Assembly (NCBI GenBank): GCA_964565925.1
Contig: CAZMGV010000008.1
Span: 2,664 to 66,663, forward strand
From: an uncultured bacterium
GTDB lineage: Bacteria > JAGRBM01 > JAHCIT01
Direction of reading: 5' to 3'
DNA: 64,000 nt
Part shown: positions 1,811-21,165 of the stretch, in pieces
How positions within the stretch are numbered: position 1 is the stretch's first letter
Layout: each line of letters starts with the position of its first letter
Made by a program: the position numbers and the translations under genes
The notes under the pieces: model-generated
The model's input: the letters and a program-made list of their open reading frames with translations, nothing else
The model's database searches: none
Told to the model about the DNA's origin: nothing

Positions 1811-3373
1811 TCAGTTGCGGCAGTCTTCTCCCGCGCAGGCCTCCAGCTGGTCCATACGGTTCATCAGCTGGGACGTGGTGGTCCGGTATTTGATCTGCCC
1901 CAGCGGCCCGGAGATCAGGTTATTCATTTCCCACGGGTCGCTGTTCAGGTCGTACAGTTCGTACTGGTGAAGGCCGAACGTATTGGCGTTCGCCTCATCG
2001 TACCACTCGACATACATGTACCGCTCGTTACGCACCGCCCGGTAGGTCGGGATCTCCTGCCCGATCGCCACGAACAGCGCTGGCGGGAGTTCCGCTCCGA
2101 TGCCGTTGGCACCGCCCGCCGTCACGTACTGGATGAGGAAATCCTTGCGCCATGGAGTTACCGCCGACGCGATCACCGGCGTCATCGACTTGCCGTCCAT
2201 GTCGGCCGGTTCCGCGAGGCCCGCCCAGTCGAGGAAGGTCGGCGCGAAATCGGACTCCAGCGTCATCTGGCTGCGTCGCTGACCCACGGGGATGCCGGGG
2301 CCGCGGACCGAGAACGGGATCCGGATCGACTCCTCATAGGGGGCCATCTTGTGGATCAGCCGGTGCGCGCCCAGGTTGTAGCCGTTGTCGCTCGTGAAGA
2401 TGATGTAGGTGTTGTCGAGTTCGCCGGCGGCGTCGAGCGCCTTCACGACATTCTCCACCAGATCGTCCAGCGCGTAGAGCGAGCCCTGACGGTTGCGGTA
2501 GTCGATCGGGTTCCAGGTGTTGACGATCGCCGCCCGCTGCGGGCCGGTGAGCCTTAGCCACGCGGACTTGTCGGAGAGGTCGGCCTCCTGAAAGTTCGGC
2601 ATCTGCGGCGGATTGGCGTTCACGTAGGGGTTGTTCGCGTGGCGCGGTGCCGGCGGAAGCGGCAGGTGCGGCGCCGTGGGGGCCACGTACAGGAAGAACG
2701 GCTGGTCGTCGTTCGTTTCGGCGCGCTGGATGAAATCCACCGCGTGACGGGCGACGTAGTCGGTCGAGTAGTCGTCTGGCTGCCAGCCGTACTGGCGGAC
2801 CGTGCCATTCTCGTTCACGCCGTAACCGTAGCCCATGTACTCCTGCAGGCGCGGGCCCACGAAACCGTACCACTCGGACCAGCCGGGCGGGATGTGGGTC
2901 GGGTCCGCATCGATTCCGTTCATGTATTTTCCGATGAGCCCGGTCTTGTACCCGGCGTTCTTCAGATAGACGGCGAAGGTCTTGTCCTCGTTGCCGTTCC
3001 TTACGAACGTCGCCCAGCCGCCCTGATCGCCGCCGTTGGTCAGCACGCCGGTGTTGTGGCCCAGCTTGCCGGTCAGAATCGTGCTGCGCGCCGGGCAGCA
3101 GATCGGGGTGGGCGCATAGGCGTTATCGAACACCAGCCCCTTGTCGTTGATGAGCGCCTTGGTCTTCTTGAGCGGATCGTCGAGCCCCTTCGACGTCGCG
3201 CGCTCCCAGTAAGGAGAGGTGCGGTTGTCGAGGTCATCCGACAGGATGAACACGATGTTGGGCTGCCGCTGGGCGGCGGCCTTCACAGGCCTGGTTGCGG
3301 GTGAGAAAAGAACCACCAGGCCCAGCGATGCCAGTGCCGCGGTGATCCAGATCGGTCGGGTTGAACGTTTCAT
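1811..3373 (-). CDS. Cys-type sulfatase (arylsulfatase family), secreted
   Basis: Signal peptide; sulfatase signature CCPARSTILTGK (C-x-P-x-R formylglycine site); 520 aa. Confidence 0.8.
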   Translation of the reverse strand: MKRSTRPIWITAALASLGLVVLFSPATRPVKAAAQRQPNIVFILSDDLDNRTSPYWERATSKGLDDPLKKTKALINDKGLVFDNAYAPTPICCPARSTILTGKLGHNTGVLTNGGDQGGWATFVRNGNEDKTFAVYLKNAGYKTGLIGKYMNGIDADPTHIPPGWSEWYGFVGPRLQEYMGYGYGVNENGTVRQYGWQPDDYSTDYVARHAVDFIQRAETNDDQPFFLYVAPTAPHLPLPPAPRHANNPYVNANPPQMPNFQEADLSDKSAWLRLTGPQRAAIVNTWNPIDYRNRQGSLYALDDLVENVVKALDAAGELDNTYIIFTSDNGYNLGAHRLIHKMAPYEESIRIPFSVRGPGIPVGQRRSQMTLESDFAPTFLDWAGLAEPADMDGKSMTPVIASAVTPWRKDFLIQYVTAGGANGIGAELPPALFVAIGQEIPTYRAVRNERYMYVEWYDEANANTFGLHQYELYDLNSDPWEMNNLISGPLGQIKYRTTTSQLMNRMDQLEACAGEDCRN

Positions 3374-3678
3374 TGGCTTTTCCTCCAGCCTTTATATTTG
3401 AAACGTTGTTATTTCAAATATAACGTTTCCTGTCAACAGAATAATCATGTGCCGACGCTGTATACTATACAACTAATTGTTTTTACTCATATTTTAACTG
3501 ACATATTTTATGGTCAGATTAGGTTCTCAGAAAACTAAACAGACACGTTTTCAGTCCATTCTGGATAAACACCCGTTCTCCTTAGACGGCGGGATTCCGT
3601 GCATAATGCGGCTGGAACGGGTGGCGGGCGCTGGTTAAGCTCGCGCATCCCCCTACCCCTTCAGGAGACCCGCCTTCC
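3374..3678. promoter_or_regulatory. AT-rich divergent intergenic region (sulfatase <- -> NMO) with palindromic element
   Basis: ~300 bp of strongly AT-rich DNA in a high-GC genome; inverted repeat atatttgaaa(8 nt)tttcaaatat and repeated AACGTT palindromes near 3395-3440. Confidence 0.4.
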
Positions 3679-4626
3679 ATGACTATCCACACTCCGGTCT
3701 GCGACCTCCTCGGAATCGAATACCCGGTCATCCTGGGCGGCATGATGGGCGTCTCCGACGGCGTGCTGTCGGCGGCCGTCTCGGAAGCGGGGGGCCTTGG
3801 CACGATTTCAGCGGCCACGTTCGGCGCGGCCGGCACCAAGCGGGAGATCCTCAAGCTCAAGGAGCGCACGAGCAAGCCGTTCTCGGTTAACCTGCCGATC
3901 TTCCACCCCGAAGTGCCCAAGATTGTCGAGGCGCTGCTCGAAACGGACGTGAAGATTGTCACGACCGCCGCCGGGAGCCCGGACAAGTTTACCAAGGCAC
4001 TGAAAGAACGCGGCATTATCGTCATCCATGTCATCTCGACCGTGCGGACCGCGCTCAAAGCGGAGGCCGCCGGTGTCGATATCGTGGTCGCCGAAGGGGT
4101 CGAATCGGGCGGCAAGGTGAGCCCCGAAGAGGTCCCCACCATCTCGCTCGTCCCGCAGGTCTGCGACGCGGTGAAAATACCGGTGATCGCGGCAGGCGGT
4201 CTGGCCGACGGACGGGGGTTGCTCGCGGCACTGGCGCTGGGCGCGCAGGGTGTCCAGATGGGCACGCTGTTCATTGCCTCGACCGAAGCGCCGGTACACG
4301 CCAATTGGAAGAACGTGCTGGTGAACGCCGGCGACGCGGCCACTTCGGTCGCCTGCCGCAAGTCCTCACCCACCCGGCTGATCCGGAACGAGTTTTTCTC
4401 CGAGCTGGAGGCGCAGGACGCGCCCGGCAAGCGCGCGATGGATTTCATGATGATCCAGGGCCAGGGGATGGCTCGCATTCCGGCCGACGCCGAAGGACTG
4501 AAAGGCAACTACACAGCCGGCGCCGGAGCGGGCCTCATCCACAAGGTGCGTTCCTCCGCCGACATCATCCGGGACCTGATCGCCGTGGCCGAGAAGGACC
4601 TCACTCGCCTCAACACGTTCCGCTAG
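3679..4626 (+). CDS. nitronate monooxygenase (NMO / 2-nitropropane dioxygenase family, FabK-like)
   Basis: GGMMGVSDGVLSAAVSEAGGLGTI FMN-binding N-terminus typical of NMO family; 315 aa. Confidence 0.75.
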   Translation: MTIHTPVCDLLGIEYPVILGGMMGVSDGVLSAAVSEAGGLGTISAATFGAAGTKREILKLKERTSKPFSVNLPIFHPEVPKIVEALLETDVKIVTTAAGSPDKFTKALKERGIIVIHVISTVRTALKAEAAGVDIVVAEGVESGGKVSPEEVPTISLVPQVCDAVKIPVIAAGGLADGRGLLAALALGAQGVQMGTLFIASTEAPVHANWKNVLVNAGDAATSVACRKSSPTRLIRNEFFSELEAQDAPGKRAMDFMMIQGQGMARIPADAEGLKGNYTAGAGAGLIHKVRSSADIIRDLIAVAEKDLTRLNTFR

Positions 4627-15374: not shown

Positions 15375-15452
15375 GTTCGGGCCGAACCTCCCGGGTGTAG
15401 CGCCCCGGTTCAGCGCGAACCGTTCGTCTCAGCGTCAGCGCGAACCGTTCGT
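15375..15452. promoter_or_regulatory. candidate operator: near-palindrome ggttcgg-g-ccgaacc plus two 17-bp direct repeats cagcgcgaaccgttcgt
   Basis: Direct repeats at 15411-15427 and 15436-15452; located upstream of promoter-like element. Confidence 0.35.
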
Positions 15453-15576
15453 GGTGAGCCTGTCGAACCACACGGTTCCGCCGTTCACCCTTCGAGACGC
15501 TTCGCTCCTCAGGGCGAACGGCAATGCCCCAAAGCGGGCGGGCGAACGATAGAGCCCCGAATGATGGCGCCCCCGG

Positions 15577-16650: not shown

Positions 16651-16757
16651 TTGGGCCCGCCGGCCTGTGCCCAGTCTTGTTCCACGAAGCTTTAGCGAAG
16701 GGGAAAGCCGAAGGACGGAGGGGTAAGTCTCAACGGAGGAGGGTCAGGTAAATACTG

Positions 16758-17219
16758 TCATGGTATAGTTTTCGTGACGAAATATATCGCACAAACGATG
16801 CCTAAAAGCATCATACCGAATGCGCCTACTGCCGCACAGTAGCCGTGCCTAGCCCGCGACTCTATGAATTTCTTAACTTCGATCGCACGGGACGCATCAA
16901 TTTTTGCTAAGCGCGGGAATATGACGTAGCCACATAAAAATAAAGAAACCATCCATGAGAAACAGGGGATCCATACCCAATGTCCTGGAACTACTTGGCC
17001 GGGATCCTTACAATCACGATATAGCTTCAATAACCCGAGATAGACCGGCTGCATCCCTGCACTAATCGTAGCAATATGCTTCGCGGCATCCGTCAGGCTA
17101 CCGATGCTCCCCGAAATCAAATCCTCTCCCATTTTTTTATACGCCGGACTCATCTTTTCAAAACGCTCAAGCGCTTCTTGAACACTATCGGGCGCGCGTT
17201 CGCCATTGATCACAGCCAT
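16758..17219 (-). CDS. small two-TM membrane protein (island gene D)
   Basis: Two C-terminal hydrophobic helices (WVWIPCFSWMVSLFLCGYVIF; YCAAVGAFGMMLLGIVCAIYFV); 20-nt gap to upstream gene. Confidence 0.5.
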   Translation of the reverse strand: MAVINGERAPDSVQEALERFEKMSPAYKKMGEDLISGSIGSLTDAAKHIATISAGMQPVYLGLLKLYRDCKDPGQVVPGHWVWIPCFSWMVSLFLCGYVIFPRLAKIDASRAIEVKKFIESRARHGYCAAVGAFGMMLLGIVCAIYFVTKTIP

Positions 17220-17238
17220 CTCAGCGACCCCAAATCAC

Positions 17239-17451
17239 CTAAAATAGAAAGGTTACCTTGTTAGCTTTTCCACACTCTGAGCATATATCATACCGATTCT
17301 CAGCTGTCATAGGCGCGCGCACTTCCATTTTCATAATGGAATCCTTCTCCGCGGATAACATTGCTTCGACATCCTGGATCGAATACGTTTGGCTGTATAT
17401 GGAAGTATTTTCTTTCTTACAATTGAAACATGTATACTTTACCATTTTCAC
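17239..17451 (-). CDS. small zinc-ribbon protein (island gene C)
   Basis: CFNC...CSEC paired CxxC motifs in 70 aa; 31-nt gap to upstream ATPase gene. Confidence 0.5.
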   Translation of the reverse strand: MKMVKYTCFNCKKENTSIYSQTYSIQDVEAMLSAEKDSIMKMEVRAPMTAENRYDICSECGKANKVTFLF

Positions 17452-17481
17452 GAGACACCTCCCGGATATTCACAACTCATT

Positions 17482-19092
17482 TCATCCTGACAAATACTCA
17501 TAGACAGCTTCTCTAACCGAATTTTTTATCGCTCGGGATCTATGAGGCCCAACGTACTTTACTTTCTGAAGCTTCTCATCAGATGCTCTAAGCACTTGCT
17601 CTAGAGTAAGCAGATTAAGCTCCTTAAGTTTTACTTTTTGCCATTCCGTGACATCCAATAGCTCGATAGACTTAGAATATGCACTCTTAAGAATATCTGT
17701 AACATTAATGTCTGGATACAATTCTTTTTCAGGAGGCAAAGACTTGAATGATTCATGATTCATTCCGTATTCTGTCATAAGTTTAATTGACAGATTTTTT
17801 GCAAATTCAATCAATCTAATTCCTTTGATATCCATTACTTTCGACATCACGATTCCCAAATGCACCGCATAACGGGAGCCAATCTCCGCTCGTGTTGCCT
17901 TAATCCCAGTCGCATGCTCGCGAATGATCCCCGTATAAGATAAAAGTCGGAATGCGTGCCTGACGGCTTCAGGTGCATCACGGTGCAGCCAGATAAAGCA
18001 CGACGTTTTCTTATCGGATTTTAAGTACGCTTCATTTTTTTGATATAACTCGTTCAATACGTTGCCTTCGACAAAATTGCGGCCCCAATCTATTAAAGGT
18101 TTATGCCCAGTATAACTCTCAACTAACATGGAATGTTCGGACCATATGTCATCTCGGTAATACTCTCGGATAACCCGCCTCACATTATCTCCGTTTAGCT
18201 TCTTCGCTCTAAGAATCGTTTTAAAAAGTAGTCGTGGATTTCCATCAGAGGCATAAGCGAGTTCCGAAAAGTGCTCCCTATTTTCTTCAATTTGTTTAAT
18301 AAGCTGTAGGTCCCCCTGCTTTACTATCATCTCCTCCATATTCTTAATGTAATCTTCACTTAATACATCTCTATTAACATTTAAGAATGTAGCATCATGA
18401 GTAGGCTCAAATGTATCTCCGTAATTAGTGACTCCAGGGTATACGGCCGCATTACAAGTCATAAATGGACTTCGTAAATCTCTAAACAACGTAAAAAATT
18501 GTCTTTGTTGCTCTGGTTTTAAGATATGTGCGGCTTCATCAAAAAATACACAAAAGCGAGATATTCCAAAGCCGATACATATATCTTCAACAGCTTCTTT
18601 AAATTGATCTACACTCGGTAATTTCGCTATATCGACTTTTACATCTGGGTGTTCCCAAGATTGCTCATACGCTTGGACAATCTTTGCGATATCGACTTCG
18701 TCTTTGGAATATCTGATTGATGGCGATGGAGTGAGCGAAAACGCCGAACTATCCGTAAAACCATATCTTCTCATACTTCTAATTATTGATTGCCATAATT
18801 TCCCAAGCATCCAGTGCTGGAATTGCATCTGATCATTGGTCTGTATAAGTGTGCCCTTGACAAAACTAATATATATCGGGAGTACTTTGTTATTGGCGAA
18901 ATTGGCTGAAAGTTCTTGAATTGCAACTTTCAATAAAAATGATTTTCCAACGCCTCTACTGCCCACTACAATTGTCGGAGCTTTGGATTTCAGGGAGTCG
19001 ATGATCCGACGGTCTTGTTCAGATTCGACGAAATACTGAATTATATCTTCGTCTTTTATATCTTCCGTACGGAATATTAGTGGATCACTCAT
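17482..19092 (-). CDS. P-loop NTPase (AAA+/STAND-like) with C-terminal helix-hairpin-helix (RNAP alpha-CTD-like) domain (island gene B)
   Basis: Walker A VVGSRGVGKS, Walker B FCVFFDEAAH; C-terminus LTLEQVLRASDEKLQKVKYVGPHRSRAIKNSVREAV resembles alpha-CTD HhH; start at ATG 19092 with AAGGGA RBS (longer ORF to 19143 possible). Confidence 0.7.
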   Translation of the reverse strand: MSDPLIFRTEDIKDEDIIQYFVESEQDRRIIDSLKSKAPTIVVGSRGVGKSFLLKVAIQELSANFANNKVLPIYISFVKGTLIQTNDQMQFQHWMLGKLWQSIIRSMRRYGFTDSSAFSLTPSPSIRYSKDEVDIAKIVQAYEQSWEHPDVKVDIAKLPSVDQFKEAVEDICIGFGISRFCVFFDEAAHILKPEQQRQFFTLFRDLRSPFMTCNAAVYPGVTNYGDTFEPTHDATFLNVNRDVLSEDYIKNMEEMIVKQGDLQLIKQIEENREHFSELAYASDGNPRLLFKTILRAKKLNGDNVRRVIREYYRDDIWSEHSMLVESYTGHKPLIDWGRNFVEGNVLNELYQKNEAYLKSDKKTSCFIWLHRDAPEAVRHAFRLLSYTGIIREHATGIKATRAEIGSRYAVHLGIVMSKVMDIKGIRLIEFAKNLSIKLMTEYGMNHESFKSLPPEKELYPDINVTDILKSAYSKSIELLDVTEWQKVKLKELNLLTLEQVLRASDEKLQKVKYVGPHRSRAIKNSVREAVYEYLSG

Positions 19093-19096
19093 GGAA

Positions 19097-19837
19097 TTAT
19101 CCCTTACTATAATACTGTCTGAATATCGGAATACTCGAAACATTATCTTGGAATACCGGCTCTAGCAGTGCTTTATCTTCAGCATTTAAACCGGCCAGAT
19201 ACCTTGAAAATAACCCGATCTGGACGATAAAGAATACGCTATCTGCTAAGGTTAACCACTCTCGAAATACCGGTTCATTATATTCGATATCGGCCTTCAA
19301 AAAATCGGTTCGGGAGTAATTCCCGTGCACGTATTCTGAACAGGATCGATATACTTTTGCACAATGTTCTGAATAGATCGATGAATCTGTCTCTAATCCG
19401 GCGCAATATAACTTACAGTAAGAGGCGGAGAATACACCGTTGTCCTTGTTGGTCACTTCTGACCACTGCAAATCATATTTACCGGCTTTCCAGGCTCTAA
19501 AGTGATAATCATGCATCGAAAAATATATGACACCAATTGAGGCTTCCAAAAATTGGCGCAATTCAAATATTGCTTGTCGATATCCTCCAGTAGTCCCTTC
19601 ATATAGGGAGCGACTGAACCCCCAACAGCAATAGTTGAATAGTTCGACCTCCGGAGTTTCCTGAATAATATTTCGCCAAATCTCTAAATCGGCGCGCTTT
19701 GAATGGATTGCTGCCAGACGACCGGCGTGGCTAGATTGCAGCGCTAACGCCGAATTGCTTTGAACCTTCTGGATTAAGCGTGTGTATTCGCTTGTAAGCG
19801 CCGTCACCGCGATAGCTGGCTTTGAAATATCAGACAT
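19097..19837 (-). CDS. hypothetical protein (island gene A), Cys-rich, possible Rx6H (HEPN-like) motif
   Basis: 246 aa from ATG 19837 (TTG at 19849 also possible); coding-like periodicity; first gene of the island operon; RSCSEYVH motif. Confidence 0.5.
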   Translation of the reverse strand: MSDISKPAIAVTALTSEYTRLIQKVQSNSALALQSSHAGRLAAIHSKRADLEIWRNIIQETPEVELFNYCCWGFSRSLYEGTTGGYRQAIFELRQFLEASIGVIYFSMHDYHFRAWKAGKYDLQWSEVTNKDNGVFSASYCKLYCAGLETDSSIYSEHCAKVYRSCSEYVHGNYSRTDFLKADIEYNEPVFREWLTLADSVFFIVQIGLFSRYLAGLNAEDKALLEPVFQDNVSSIPIFRQYYSKG

Positions 19838-20099
19838 GTACGGTTCCAATCGTCTTTGATATCACAAAATATATACCAACTAGTAAAAGTGTTCAAAAAA
19901 ATAGTAGTAGGCGCCATCCTTATTCACAGGCTCACCACGAACGGTGCCGCTCTGAAAATGCACCTTCCGGTGCGGCTTTCCCCCGAAATTCCCGCCAGTT
20001 ACCAACTGTGACACTCCGTGACACACACGTCTGATAGGGTGCTTTGCAGGTAAGGGGGCATATGGGCCCCGCCATCACAAGTCTGCCGCTTCCATCCCT

Positions 20100-20189
20100 G
20101 CGACCCCGAGGGCGGGGTCGCGGTCCCTTCCGGAGGAAGGGACTTTCGGGAGCCCTCTTCCCATGGAAGAGGGTCCGGCTGAAAGCCGG
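20100..20189. repeat. cluster of four contiguous GC-rich stem-loops
   Basis: gcgacccc-gagggc-ggggtcgc (20100-20121); tcccttcc-gga-ggaaggga (20124-20142); ccctcttcc-cat-ggaagaggg (20153-20173); ccggct-gaa-agccgg (20175-20189). Confidence 0.6.
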
Positions 20190-20205
20190 GGGAGATGGCG
20201 CAGGG

Positions 20206-21165
20206 ATGGAGAAGGAGGTCCTTTTGATGCTTCGAGATCCCGATCTGCCGCACTACCAGCCGAGCGCGACCATCAACTGCCTGGTGCAGGCGATGCGAAC
20301 GCCTGACCCGATTGTCGCCCGGAATCTGTTTCTGGAGGCCCGGGCGCGGGTCCTTCAGGGGGCGGTCTATTTAGGCGCCTGGACGAAGAACGACCGGGTC
20401 GCCTGCGAGAGCCACAAGCTCACCCTGCGAGAAACGAACCGGCTCTACCACGACTACGACCGGATCGCGTTCGAGGCGCAGCGGCTGGCCGGCTCCGAAG
20501 GCCGAGCGGCGGCGGCAGCGCACGCCGACCTGCACAAGGGCCGCCATAACCCGGTCACGGCGAACCAGGAGGACTACCTCCCGCCGCTCCAGGGTCCGGA
20601 GGAAGCCACGCCTGAACAGCGGGACGAAGCGGCCTCCGTTCTGGAGTTCCAGAACCTCGAAGCCGAGCGCGAAACCCTCGACTGCATCAGCCGGTTCTTT
20701 AAGGACCTAAACACATTGGAAATTTCTCCGCAGCTCCGCAACCGCCCGGAAAAACTGGAGAATCTGGCGAAGGAACTTGTGGACGGAATCCCGCCGGAGG
20801 TGCTTGATGGGGTGGCTGATTCTTTCGCCGACATGCATCCGTTGAACTTAGGAACGGTGAGGGGTGGAGACATTCCGCACCCCCACCCGGCGGCGCCATA
20901 TCCCACCGGAGATGCCACCGGAGACGCCGCCGGGTCTCCCCCGTCGAGGGGGAGAGACTCCGCCCGGCTGACTACCCCGGGTCCATTCAGCCCCGCGAGT
21001 CTGTCCCCCCAATTCGGGGGGACCGCGAAGGCGAAGCCGGAGCAAGGGGGTCTGCGGGACGGGGGGACCGCGAGCCGCGTTTTACCGGAGGCGGGCAAGG
21101 AGGTTGAGCAGCCGGAGGTGACACTGCCCGGTCCCCCATCAGGTCACCCTCCCCTCCGGTTTTGA
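20206..21165 (+). CDS. hypothetical protein with Pro/Gly-rich C-terminal tail
   Basis: ORF from MEKEVLLMLRD; N-terminal part coding-like, C-terminal low complexity; no motif; could be spurious. Confidence 0.3.
   Translation: MEKEVLLMLRDPDLPHYQPSATINCLVQAMRTPDPIVARNLFLEARARVLQGAVYLGAWTKNDRVACESHKLTLRETNRLYHDYDRIAFEAQRLAGSEGRAAAAAHADLHKGRHNPVTANQEDYLPPLQGPEEATPEQRDEAASVLEFQNLEAERETLDCISRFFKDLNTLEISPQLRNRPEKLENLAKELVDGIPPEVLDGVADSFADMHPLNLGTVRGGDIPHPHPAAPYPTGDATGDAAGSPPSRGRDSARLTTPGPFSPASLSPQFGGTAKAKPEQGGLRDGGTASRVLPEAGKEVEQPEVTLPGPPSGHPPLRF

Follow-up and report, generated by a model that had tools for sequence, protein, structure and literature searches.

Which genes of a compact, foreign-looking cluster act together, and what do they do? 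The question is raised by a block of about 3.2 kb with a low guanine-plus-cytosine (GC) content in a GC-rich stretch of 64,000 nucleotides from an uncultured bacterium (assembly GCA_964565925.1, contig CAZMGV010000008.1, positions 2,664 to 66,663; hereafter the window). Four open reading frames on the minus strand, which we call A to D in their order along that strand, fill the block with gaps of 4, 30 and 19 nucleotides (nt) for A/B, B/C and C/D, respectively. The block and its genes are as follows.

16700..19925, no strand: low-GC block, horizontally acquired; edges placed to within about 30 nt either way from GC profiles
19097-19837, minus strand: gene A, 246 amino acids from ATG; predicted HEPN-fold RNase and probable effector
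17482-19092, minus strand: gene B, 536 amino acids from MSDPLIF; AAA+ ATPase of the ORC/Cdc6 clade with a helical lid, a winged helix and a C-terminal helix-hairpin-helix (HhH) domain
17239-17451, minus strand: gene C, 70 amino acids; zinc-ribbon-like, with two CxxC pairs
16758-17219, minus strand: gene D, 153 amino acids; membrane protein with two transmembrane segments

An earlier note on this DNA had taken the four genes together as a candidate novel defence module, on the logic of an ATPase joined to a small membrane protein. The block is a real and recent horizontal acquisition, and sequence comparisons identify the functional unit within it as two genes, A and B, and not four. With moderate confidence, we read the block as a recent horizontal cassette whose core, A+B, is a self-contained conflict module in which an NTPase controls an RNase. 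The pair is most likely an unnamed anti-phage or abortive-infection system, and is accordingly described here as a predicted candidate for a defence system of the NTPase-plus-nuclease type.

Composition, linkage and distribution

The block is foreign in composition: over approximately 16700-19925, GC goes down to 0.36-0.45 from a level of 0.63-0.66, and GC at third codon positions (GC3) to 0.36-0.49 from about 0.9. Windows of 400 nt have GC fractions of 0.36-0.49 within approximately 16800-19800 and 0.63-0.72 on either side. Gene by gene, the values are 0.43 for A, 0.39 for both B and C, and 0.48 for D, compared with 0.64-0.69 for the flanking genes, and GC3 separates the island genes (0.36-0.49) from their neighbours (0.77-0.91) more widely still. 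The sliding-window GC and GC3 profiles therefore bear out the low-GC block of about 3.2 kb that the earlier note had seen in high-GC DNA. Its description of four co-directional, packed minus-strand genes is also accurate, with the gaps given above standing against a claimed range of 4-31 nt. Two independent Logan assemblies from sister samples (L001 and L017) are 100% identical to the window over the left junction or the entire island; the junction is therefore no artefact of joining unrelated pieces in the assembly of a single data set.

To place the genes among their relatives, approximately 100 related loci were gathered, of which 82 non-redundant loci served for scoring neighbour recurrence; 83 family members were aligned. 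A single-sequence scan of genome contigs had returned one distant locus only. Gene B has at least 1778 homologues, spread over Pseudomonadota, Bacillota, Cyanobacteriota and methanogenic archaea as well as prophages and plasmids, with proteins about 50% identical in Pseudomonas, Enterobacter, Aeromonas, Alcanivorax, cyanobacteria, Anaerosporomusa and Methanosarcina. Wherever a locus has room for it (92 of 92), A is the gene immediately upstream of B, as in Pseudomonas, Enterobacter, cyanobacteria, Clostridium and Methanosarcina, and the order is kept at only about 40% identity on a Planktothrix plasmid and a Clostridium butyricum megaplasmid. Most A-B gaps measure between -8 and +14 nt, which suggests translational coupling. 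No family of flanking genes, by comparison, recurs in more than 3 of the 82 non-redundant loci.

The two genes have also diverged together. Their pairwise identity matrices correlate with r = 0.889, a value reached by none of 999 Mantel permutations. A is the faster-evolving partner, with a mean identity of 40% versus 59% for B, and the pair in the window is an outlier of its family (best identities of 34% for A and 53% for B). A+B is richer in AT than its flanks in 42 of 44 loci, by a mean of 9.5 points, and is in general a mobile, foreign cassette. As judged by sequence, A+B is a widespread, unannotated family of bacteria and archaea and is not unique to this genome.

Genes C and D behave differently. 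Neither has a homologue in the approximately 100 loci related to A+B, and they are found downstream of B only here; the 90%-identity clusters of both contain this organism's own copies alone. The translation of C has its cysteine pairs at C8xxC11 and C57xxC60, and its zinc-ribbon matches are all sub-threshold. D has two clear hydrophobic segments in its hydropathy profile (residues ~81-102 and 126-148), in line with the two-transmembrane protein proposed earlier, and, in a set of 1.84 billion cluster representatives, no more than seven relatives, all of them marginal (E 9e-7 to 7e-4). Residues 4-57 of D, its soluble N-terminal part, match a stretch that is repeated seven times in a 1966-residue protein (P0242; E 9e-7). 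Most contigs carrying other D-like proteins are too short for context.

These observations bear on the possibility that all four genes form one system, with C and D as integral parts, for example as a membrane-disrupting effector under control of the ATPase. The genes are co-directional, with gaps of 4-30 nt and a common foreign composition, and C is preceded by a good ribosome-binding site (GGAGG). An unrelated contig (L023, 4744-5465) also carries a D-like gene (154 amino acids, 25-28% identity) directly after a gene for an 84-residue CxxC protein, next to genes for a TIR+SLFN_AlbA_2 protein and a Lit-like Peptidase_U49 protein; from this arrangement, C+D may be a small conflict-related pair of their own. 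Against a four-gene system stand the lack of C and D downstream of B at any other locus, the near-orphan status of D, and the GC content of D (0.48, versus 0.39 for B and C), which hints at a separate origin. Nor is C significantly similar to the 84-residue protein: BLASTP gives E 0.005 over 20 residues that lie outside the cysteine motifs. We consider a four-gene system improbable. Only A and B are conserved together, so the pairing of ATPase and small membrane protein proposed earlier is not supported as the basis of the system, and the sequence data place C and D as cargo gained in this lineage, outside the conserved module.

Predicted folds and catalytic sites of A and B

Gene A has no match in Pfam (E <= 1), NCBIfam, PHROGs or PADLOC, and 52 of its relatives likewise have no Pfam match at E <= 1. 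Homologues were retrieved with an alignment of the genes upstream of B; a single-sequence query, in a family with identities in the 25-30% range, recovered A alone. The structure predicted from a 52-sequence alignment is all-helical, with a predicted local distance difference test score (pLDDT) of 92. The most conserved segment of the family is Y-R164-x-C-S-E-Y/F-V-H171-G-N, and it contains the following motif.

19325..19348, minus strand: candidate HEPN Rx4-6H catalytic motif of A, R164-S-C-S-E-Y-V-H171, read from sequence

R164 is kept in 80 of 82 aligned sequences and H171 in 82 of 82. The residue after R164 is a glutamate in 79 of 82 and a serine in the window protein. In the model, R164-x6-H171 lies at the C-terminal end of helix 148-172, directly before a loop, which is where a survey of HEPN proteins places the Rx4-6H motif (PMC3710099). 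According to the same survey, six-residue spacers occur, the arginine is followed by a polar residue, helices 2 and 3 are separated by an insert, and helix 2 contains a conserved acidic residue (PMC3710099). A has an insert at 110-144 and an invariant E98 (80/80) in helix 86-108. A Foldseek search of the PDB with the model gave nothing significant, and the sole matches with a probability above 0.5 were to HEPN-type proteins; a sequence search of the PDB with A gave no match. We are fairly confident in the prediction that A is a HEPN RNase, and regard it as the probable effector of the module. If A is a HEPN protein, it belongs to an uncatalogued family, as no curated HEPN model matches it. The earlier description of an unknown 246-residue protein gives way to a probable HEPN-fold effector with an R-x6-H site.

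Gene B is easier to place. It matches the Pfam family PF24389 ('ORC-CDC6-like') with 49.8 bits against a cut-off of 27, the best stretch covering residues 24-73 only, and PF24389 is present in nearly all of the 120 B homologues listed. Its catalytic and nucleic-acid-binding elements are predicted at these positions.

18940..18963, minus strand: Walker A of B, G44-S-R-G-V-G-K50-S51 (GxxGxGK[ST]); G44, G47, G49 and K50 invariant in 83/83
18535..18540, minus strand: Walker B of B, D185-E186 (hhhhDE); invariant in 83/83
17833..18012, minus strand: winged-helix-like region of B, residues ~361-420
17485..17706, minus strand: C-terminal HhH domain of B, RpoA alpha-CTD-like, residues ~463-536

A further motif in the lid, G284-N-P-R287, is also invariant in all 83 family members, and we take it to correspond to the G-D-A-R sensor 2 of Cdc6. 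Since Walker A, Walker B and G-N-P-R are all kept in 83/83, the sequence predicts that B is an active ATPase. The AlphaFold2 model of B (pLDDT 82) has an AAA+ core with a helical insert of approximately 100 residues between strands 2 and 3, a helical lid, a winged-helix region with strand-helix-strand-strand order (366-410), and a C-terminal helical domain. The ORC/Cdc6 clade is characterised by a helical insert after strand 2, a C-terminal helical bundle (the lid) and a C-terminal winged helix (PMC12839542), and the model displays all three features.

The C-terminus of B gives weak but consistent matches to the HhH models of RpoA (alpha-CTD) and DisA in NCBIfam, which agrees with the P-loop NTPase with a C-terminal HhH domain that had been read from the letters alone. 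A profile of the B family finds five RpoA alpha-CTD chains in the PDB, weakly (E 0.15-0.5), and otherwise no PDB sequence. G515, R518 and R520 are almost invariant in this region, and one homologue is annotated 'RNA polymerase alpha subunit C-terminal domain-containing'. B is predicted to bind DNA and to act, probably, as a sensor or regulator.

Structurally, B is matched best by the Cdc6/Orc1 initiators and the transposition ATPases TnsC and MuB. Together with the winged helix and the post-beta2 helical insert, which are typical of initiators, they raise the possibility that B initiates replication, or selects targets in the manner of TnsC/MuB, for a degraded mobile element, with A as an accessory and the pair serving propagation. 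No transposase, helicase, primase or other replication gene recurs in the 82 loci, and no iterons or origin-like repeats were seen in the island. The carriers of the pair already replicate by themselves (an IncFII plasmid with RepA, P2-like and lambda-like prophages), and the constant partner of B bears a nuclease-type motif. A role in replication or transposition is therefore, in our estimation, very improbable.

Genomic contexts and predicted function

The relatives of A+B lie among genes of mobile elements and of genetic conflict. In Pseudomonas lundensis, the pair has an EcoRII restriction-modification system with Vsr on one side and, on the other, tail genes of a P2-like prophage in which MqsRA is also encoded. 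An Enterobacter pair is on an IncFII plasmid (with RepA), adjoining an integrase, a DUF2971 gene and TacAT; the Methanosarcina pair is near ParE, Cas4 and a PUA-PAPS-reductase gene; and the C. butyricum pair adjoins a serine recombinase. In one 3-Mb genome, A+B is in an island with IS66 and integrase fragments near smpB. The pair of Pseudomonas alkylphenolica (CP046621; L024, 7681-11611) adjoins a SRA-ScoMcrA type IV restriction gene in an islet that has no mobility gene and lies beside ihfA-pheST-rplT-infC-thrS, making it a second 'naked' insertion like that of the window. On plasmid p2 of Planktothrix agardhii (L018, 1-13602), genes for a DUF4007 protein, a 1170-residue protein and a PAPS reductase lie on one side of A+B, and DEAD helicase, ATP-binding, DUF2779 and PLD genes on the other, so that the pair looks like a system nested in a larger phosphorothioation-like defence locus. 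Five IMG/VR viral contigs with A+B have as neighbours genes for a C5-methylase with Vsr, UmuC, Dam, an endolysin, an ADP-ribosyltransferase, a dNMP kinase or a portal protein. Restriction-modification, toxin-antitoxin, integrase, prophage or plasmid genes are present in all of the approximately 10 annotated neighbourhoods inspected.

More distant relatives of B (22-26% identity), on Rhizobium phaseoli pRphaR630c (L021, 2775-6714) and a Limimaricola plasmid (L020, 3947-6502), have other partner genes. One is found with a methyltransferase and a 349-residue protein, beside a type ISP restriction-modification gene and an integrase; the other is found with a 274-residue protein, beside ParDE and HipA. 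This exchange of partners fits a sensor ATPase with exchangeable effectors, and the wider PF24389 family may be of that kind.

In the mechanism that we propose, three parts of B would contact nucleic acid: the helical insert after beta2, the winged helix and the HhH domain at the C-terminus. A, translationally coupled to B and probably in complex with it, would be held in check by B, although control by activation in place of restraint is also conceivable. When B meets a mark of an invading replicon (foreign DNA, for instance, or an intermediate of replication or packaging), its conformation or oligomeric state would change in an ATP-dependent manner, and A would thereby be released or assembled. 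As a HEPN endoribonuclease, A would probably form its full R-x6-H site by pairing into a dimer, like other enzymes of that superfamily. The activated enzyme would cleave tRNA, rRNA or mRNA of the host or the phage, such that translation stops and the infection is aborted. C and D, the zinc-ribbon and two-transmembrane proteins, share the operon, and the A+B module would need neither.

A more specific version of this proposal is possible, and we offer it tentatively: A+B would be an unnamed immune system of bacteria and archaea in which a repurposed ORC/Cdc6 ATPase recognises invader DNA or replication intermediates and licenses a separate RNase of an uncatalogued HEPN family, coupled in this genome to an orphan zinc-ribbon/membrane pair. 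Sensing of this kind would be a principle of its own among nuclease-NTPase defences.

The same layout and contexts could also be those of a toxin-antitoxin or addiction module, in which A is a HEPN toxin and B its antitoxin, and which would primarily stabilise its carrier elements with no dedicated sensing of phage. The bicistronic arrangement is tight, with genes that overlap or nearly do so, the pair is often on plasmids and prophages, and A evolves faster than B. There is also a precedent, as pairs of a HEPN protein (MAE_18760 family) and a ParA/Soj ATPase have been predicted to be toxin-antitoxin systems with the ATPase as antitoxin (PMC3710099). On the other hand, B, with its 536 residues, its three nucleic-acid-binding elements and its invariant ATPase site, is more complex than a simple antitoxin needs to be, and it is atypical for the putative toxin gene to come first and for an obvious autoregulatory helix-turn-helix antitoxin to be missing. 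We consider a primary role in addiction unlikely. It also overlaps with the defence reading, in that many toxin-antitoxin systems also defend.

Several points weigh against a defence module with a HEPN effector. The helix-2 motif of A reads R94-x3-E98, where E-x3-[KR] is usual. Conservation of B is uniform, with a mean identity of 59%; the protein is variable only in loop 116-135 and linker 446-465, and has no hypervariable sensor region, unlike many sensors of phage proteins; this conservation would favour a conserved trigger, for example a DNA structure, over a fast-evolving phage protein. None of 50,697 deposited phage genomes or 5,426 complete Escherichia coli genomes contains A+B, which leaves it with no convenient model host. 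The association with defence genes was judged by inspection of the approximately 10 annotated neighbourhoods, and the function of every family member is a prediction from sequence and models. Of the earlier proposal of a candidate novel defence module, the foreign, operon-like character is upheld, and the relatives in prophages, on plasmids and near restriction-modification or toxin-antitoxin genes support it; the unit is smaller than proposed, and with so many B homologues it is not unique.

The proteins of the island have no significant match to named systems in PADLOC-DB v2.0.0, NCBIfam r20 (including the DS-xx families) or Pfam, and these hidden Markov model (HMM) searches agree with the earlier view that the gene set does not have the layout of well-known systems. 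The best matches of B are confined to the P-loop (PDC-S01, E 4.7e-4; mad8, 7e-4; PtuA, 0.012), and the DS41_1 model scores 25 bits on B against a cut-off of 370. Five other family members likewise gave no significant match to a named system. Septu, BREX, MADS, PDC-S01, DS-41, PD-Lambda-2 and AbiE were rejected on HMM evidence. FS_HEPN_TM, a pair of a HEPN and a transmembrane protein, came into consideration through the presence of a HEPN-like gene and a transmembrane gene in the island, and was judged unlikely because D is not conserved with A. We found no description of a pair of a HEPN protein and an ORC/Cdc6-HhH ATPase in papers on HEPN proteins, BREX, Dnd, HEC, DefensePredictor, nuclease-NTPase systems, modularity networks and STAND sensors; a recent naming is possible.

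Among known systems, HEPN-DUF499 ATPase fusions (Ava_2192 type; HmaC of Hma, or 'BREX-related type 1') come nearest to A+B in logic and in the order of domains, followed by PrrC and RloC. The A-then-B gene order mirrors the domain order of the HEPN-DUF499 proteins, and the proposed logic of a DNA-scanning ATPase with a suicidal RNase is alike. HEPN-DUF499 is a fusion that ends in an RRM, whereas A and B are separate genes, B ends in an HhH or alpha-CTD-like domain, and no methyltransferase or helicase partner recurs; neither A nor B has a significant DUF499 or HEPN match in Pfam. PrrC and RloC also place a HEPN-type RNase under a P-loop NTPase and are tied to restriction-modification systems and prophages as an abortive second line of defence (PMC3710099). 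In those proteins an ABC ATPase and the nuclease form one chain, whereas B is a separate AAA+ protein of the ORC/Cdc6 clade with DNA-binding domains. The two-gene HEPN(MAE_18760) + ParA/Soj dyads and MNT-HEPN are likewise thought to have an RNase controlled by its partner (PMC3710099), with another class of ATPase and another HEPN family, and B is much larger and has DNA-binding domains.

In fold, B is closest to Cdc6/Orc1 and BrxC. It shares with the archaeal and eukaryotic Orc1/Cdc6 initiators the overall fold, the post-beta2 helical insert, a G-x-x-R lid motif and the C-terminal winged helix, and differs from them in its sporadic horizontal distribution, its extra HhH domain, its obligatory HEPN-like partner and the lack of a link to an origin or to MCM. 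BrxC/PglY and BrxD of BREX, and SspC, belong to multi-gene systems based on DNA modification, whereas the only constant partner of B is A; B is also much shorter, its C-terminus differs, and the PADLOC BREX models match at noise level. Septu PtuAB, HEC-02/03 and Gabija-like systems resemble A+B as bicistronic combinations of ATPase and nuclease, with the ATPase as the presumed sensor of infection that licenses its partner (bioRxiv 10.1101/2024.01.29.577857). They combine ABC-type ATPases with nucleases of the HNH, NERD, PIN or TOPRIM classes.

Acquisition of the block and significance

The edges of the block are sharp. In 100-nt windows, GC drops from 0.61 to 0.48 at approximately 16700 and climbs from 0.40 to 0.56 at approximately 19900. 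The neighbouring genes are ordinary chromosomal ones, encoding GGDEF-GAF, TPR and cNMP-binding proteins, a cofactor-independent phosphoglycerate mutase, a glycosyltransferase, a PAP2 protein and an FGGY kinase. As the earlier note had it, there is no integrase or transposase domain in the neighbouring genes, and a scan for tRNA and transfer-messenger RNA (tmRNA) genes found none in the 64-kb window. Direct repeats flanking the island do not exceed chance, and an Rfam scan of the island found no RNA gene. Two further features lie at its right end.

19868..19896, minus strand: promoter-like site, TTGAAC, 17 nt, TATATT, from a consensus scan; within the AT-rich block, 19-31 nt upstream of the A start
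19926..19945, plus strand: partial copy of a repeat element (ACAGGCTCACCACGAACGGT) abutting the right edge of the island; 20-nt exact inverted match to 15440-15459 (blastn-short E 9e-6)

The region has no more promoter-like sites in total than shuffled sequence would give, and for this one the position alone is suggestive. Because it falls inside the AT-rich block just upstream of A, the cassette is predicted to carry, probably, its own expression signals.

The match between 15440-15459 and 19926-19945 extends to approximately 32 nt with two gaps, and the 15440-15459 copy is in a 190-nt intergenic region that is repeat-like. ACAGGCTCACCACGAACGGT may be a repetitive extragenic palindromic (REP)-like element and a hotspot of insertion or recombination, and its partial copy at the right edge is the only clue to the route by which the island was acquired. 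Insertion of the island into a REP-like repeat was considered and set aside, the significant partial copy being at the right edge only and the similarity at the left edge being at chance level. The nearest relative found via the flanking phosphoglycerate mutase (L016) shares that gene alone, at 77% nucleotide identity and with no synteny, so the insertion site is not reconstructable from it.

Two observations elsewhere in the window are recorded for completeness. In the high-GC flank upstream of the island, 20090-20145 on the minus strand gives a sub-threshold match to the Rfam family whalefall-1 (24.8 bits against a gathering score of 37, E 0.0025); a perfect 12-nt inverted repeat has its arms at 20091-20102 and 20199-20210. 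In the rest of the 64 kb, no 500-nt window falls below a GC fraction of 0.52 except a marginal one at 3251 (0.512); this segment, 3251-3750, is the sole other 500-nt stretch of reduced GC (0.51 versus approximately 0.63).

This genome documents the recent acquisition of 3.2 kb with no recognisable mobility gene, and provides a concrete case of how small defence-like cassettes spread. The effector A is recognised by no Pfam, NCBIfam or PADLOC model, and the ATPase B matches a generic Pfam family model only. The module is compact and tractable, with clear predicted catalytic residues in both B (K50 and E186) and A (R164 and H171). If the reading favoured here is true, A+B would extend the defence repertoire of prokaryotes by a widespread module of two genes, in which DNA recognition of the ORC/Cdc6 type would be linked directly to an RNase effector.

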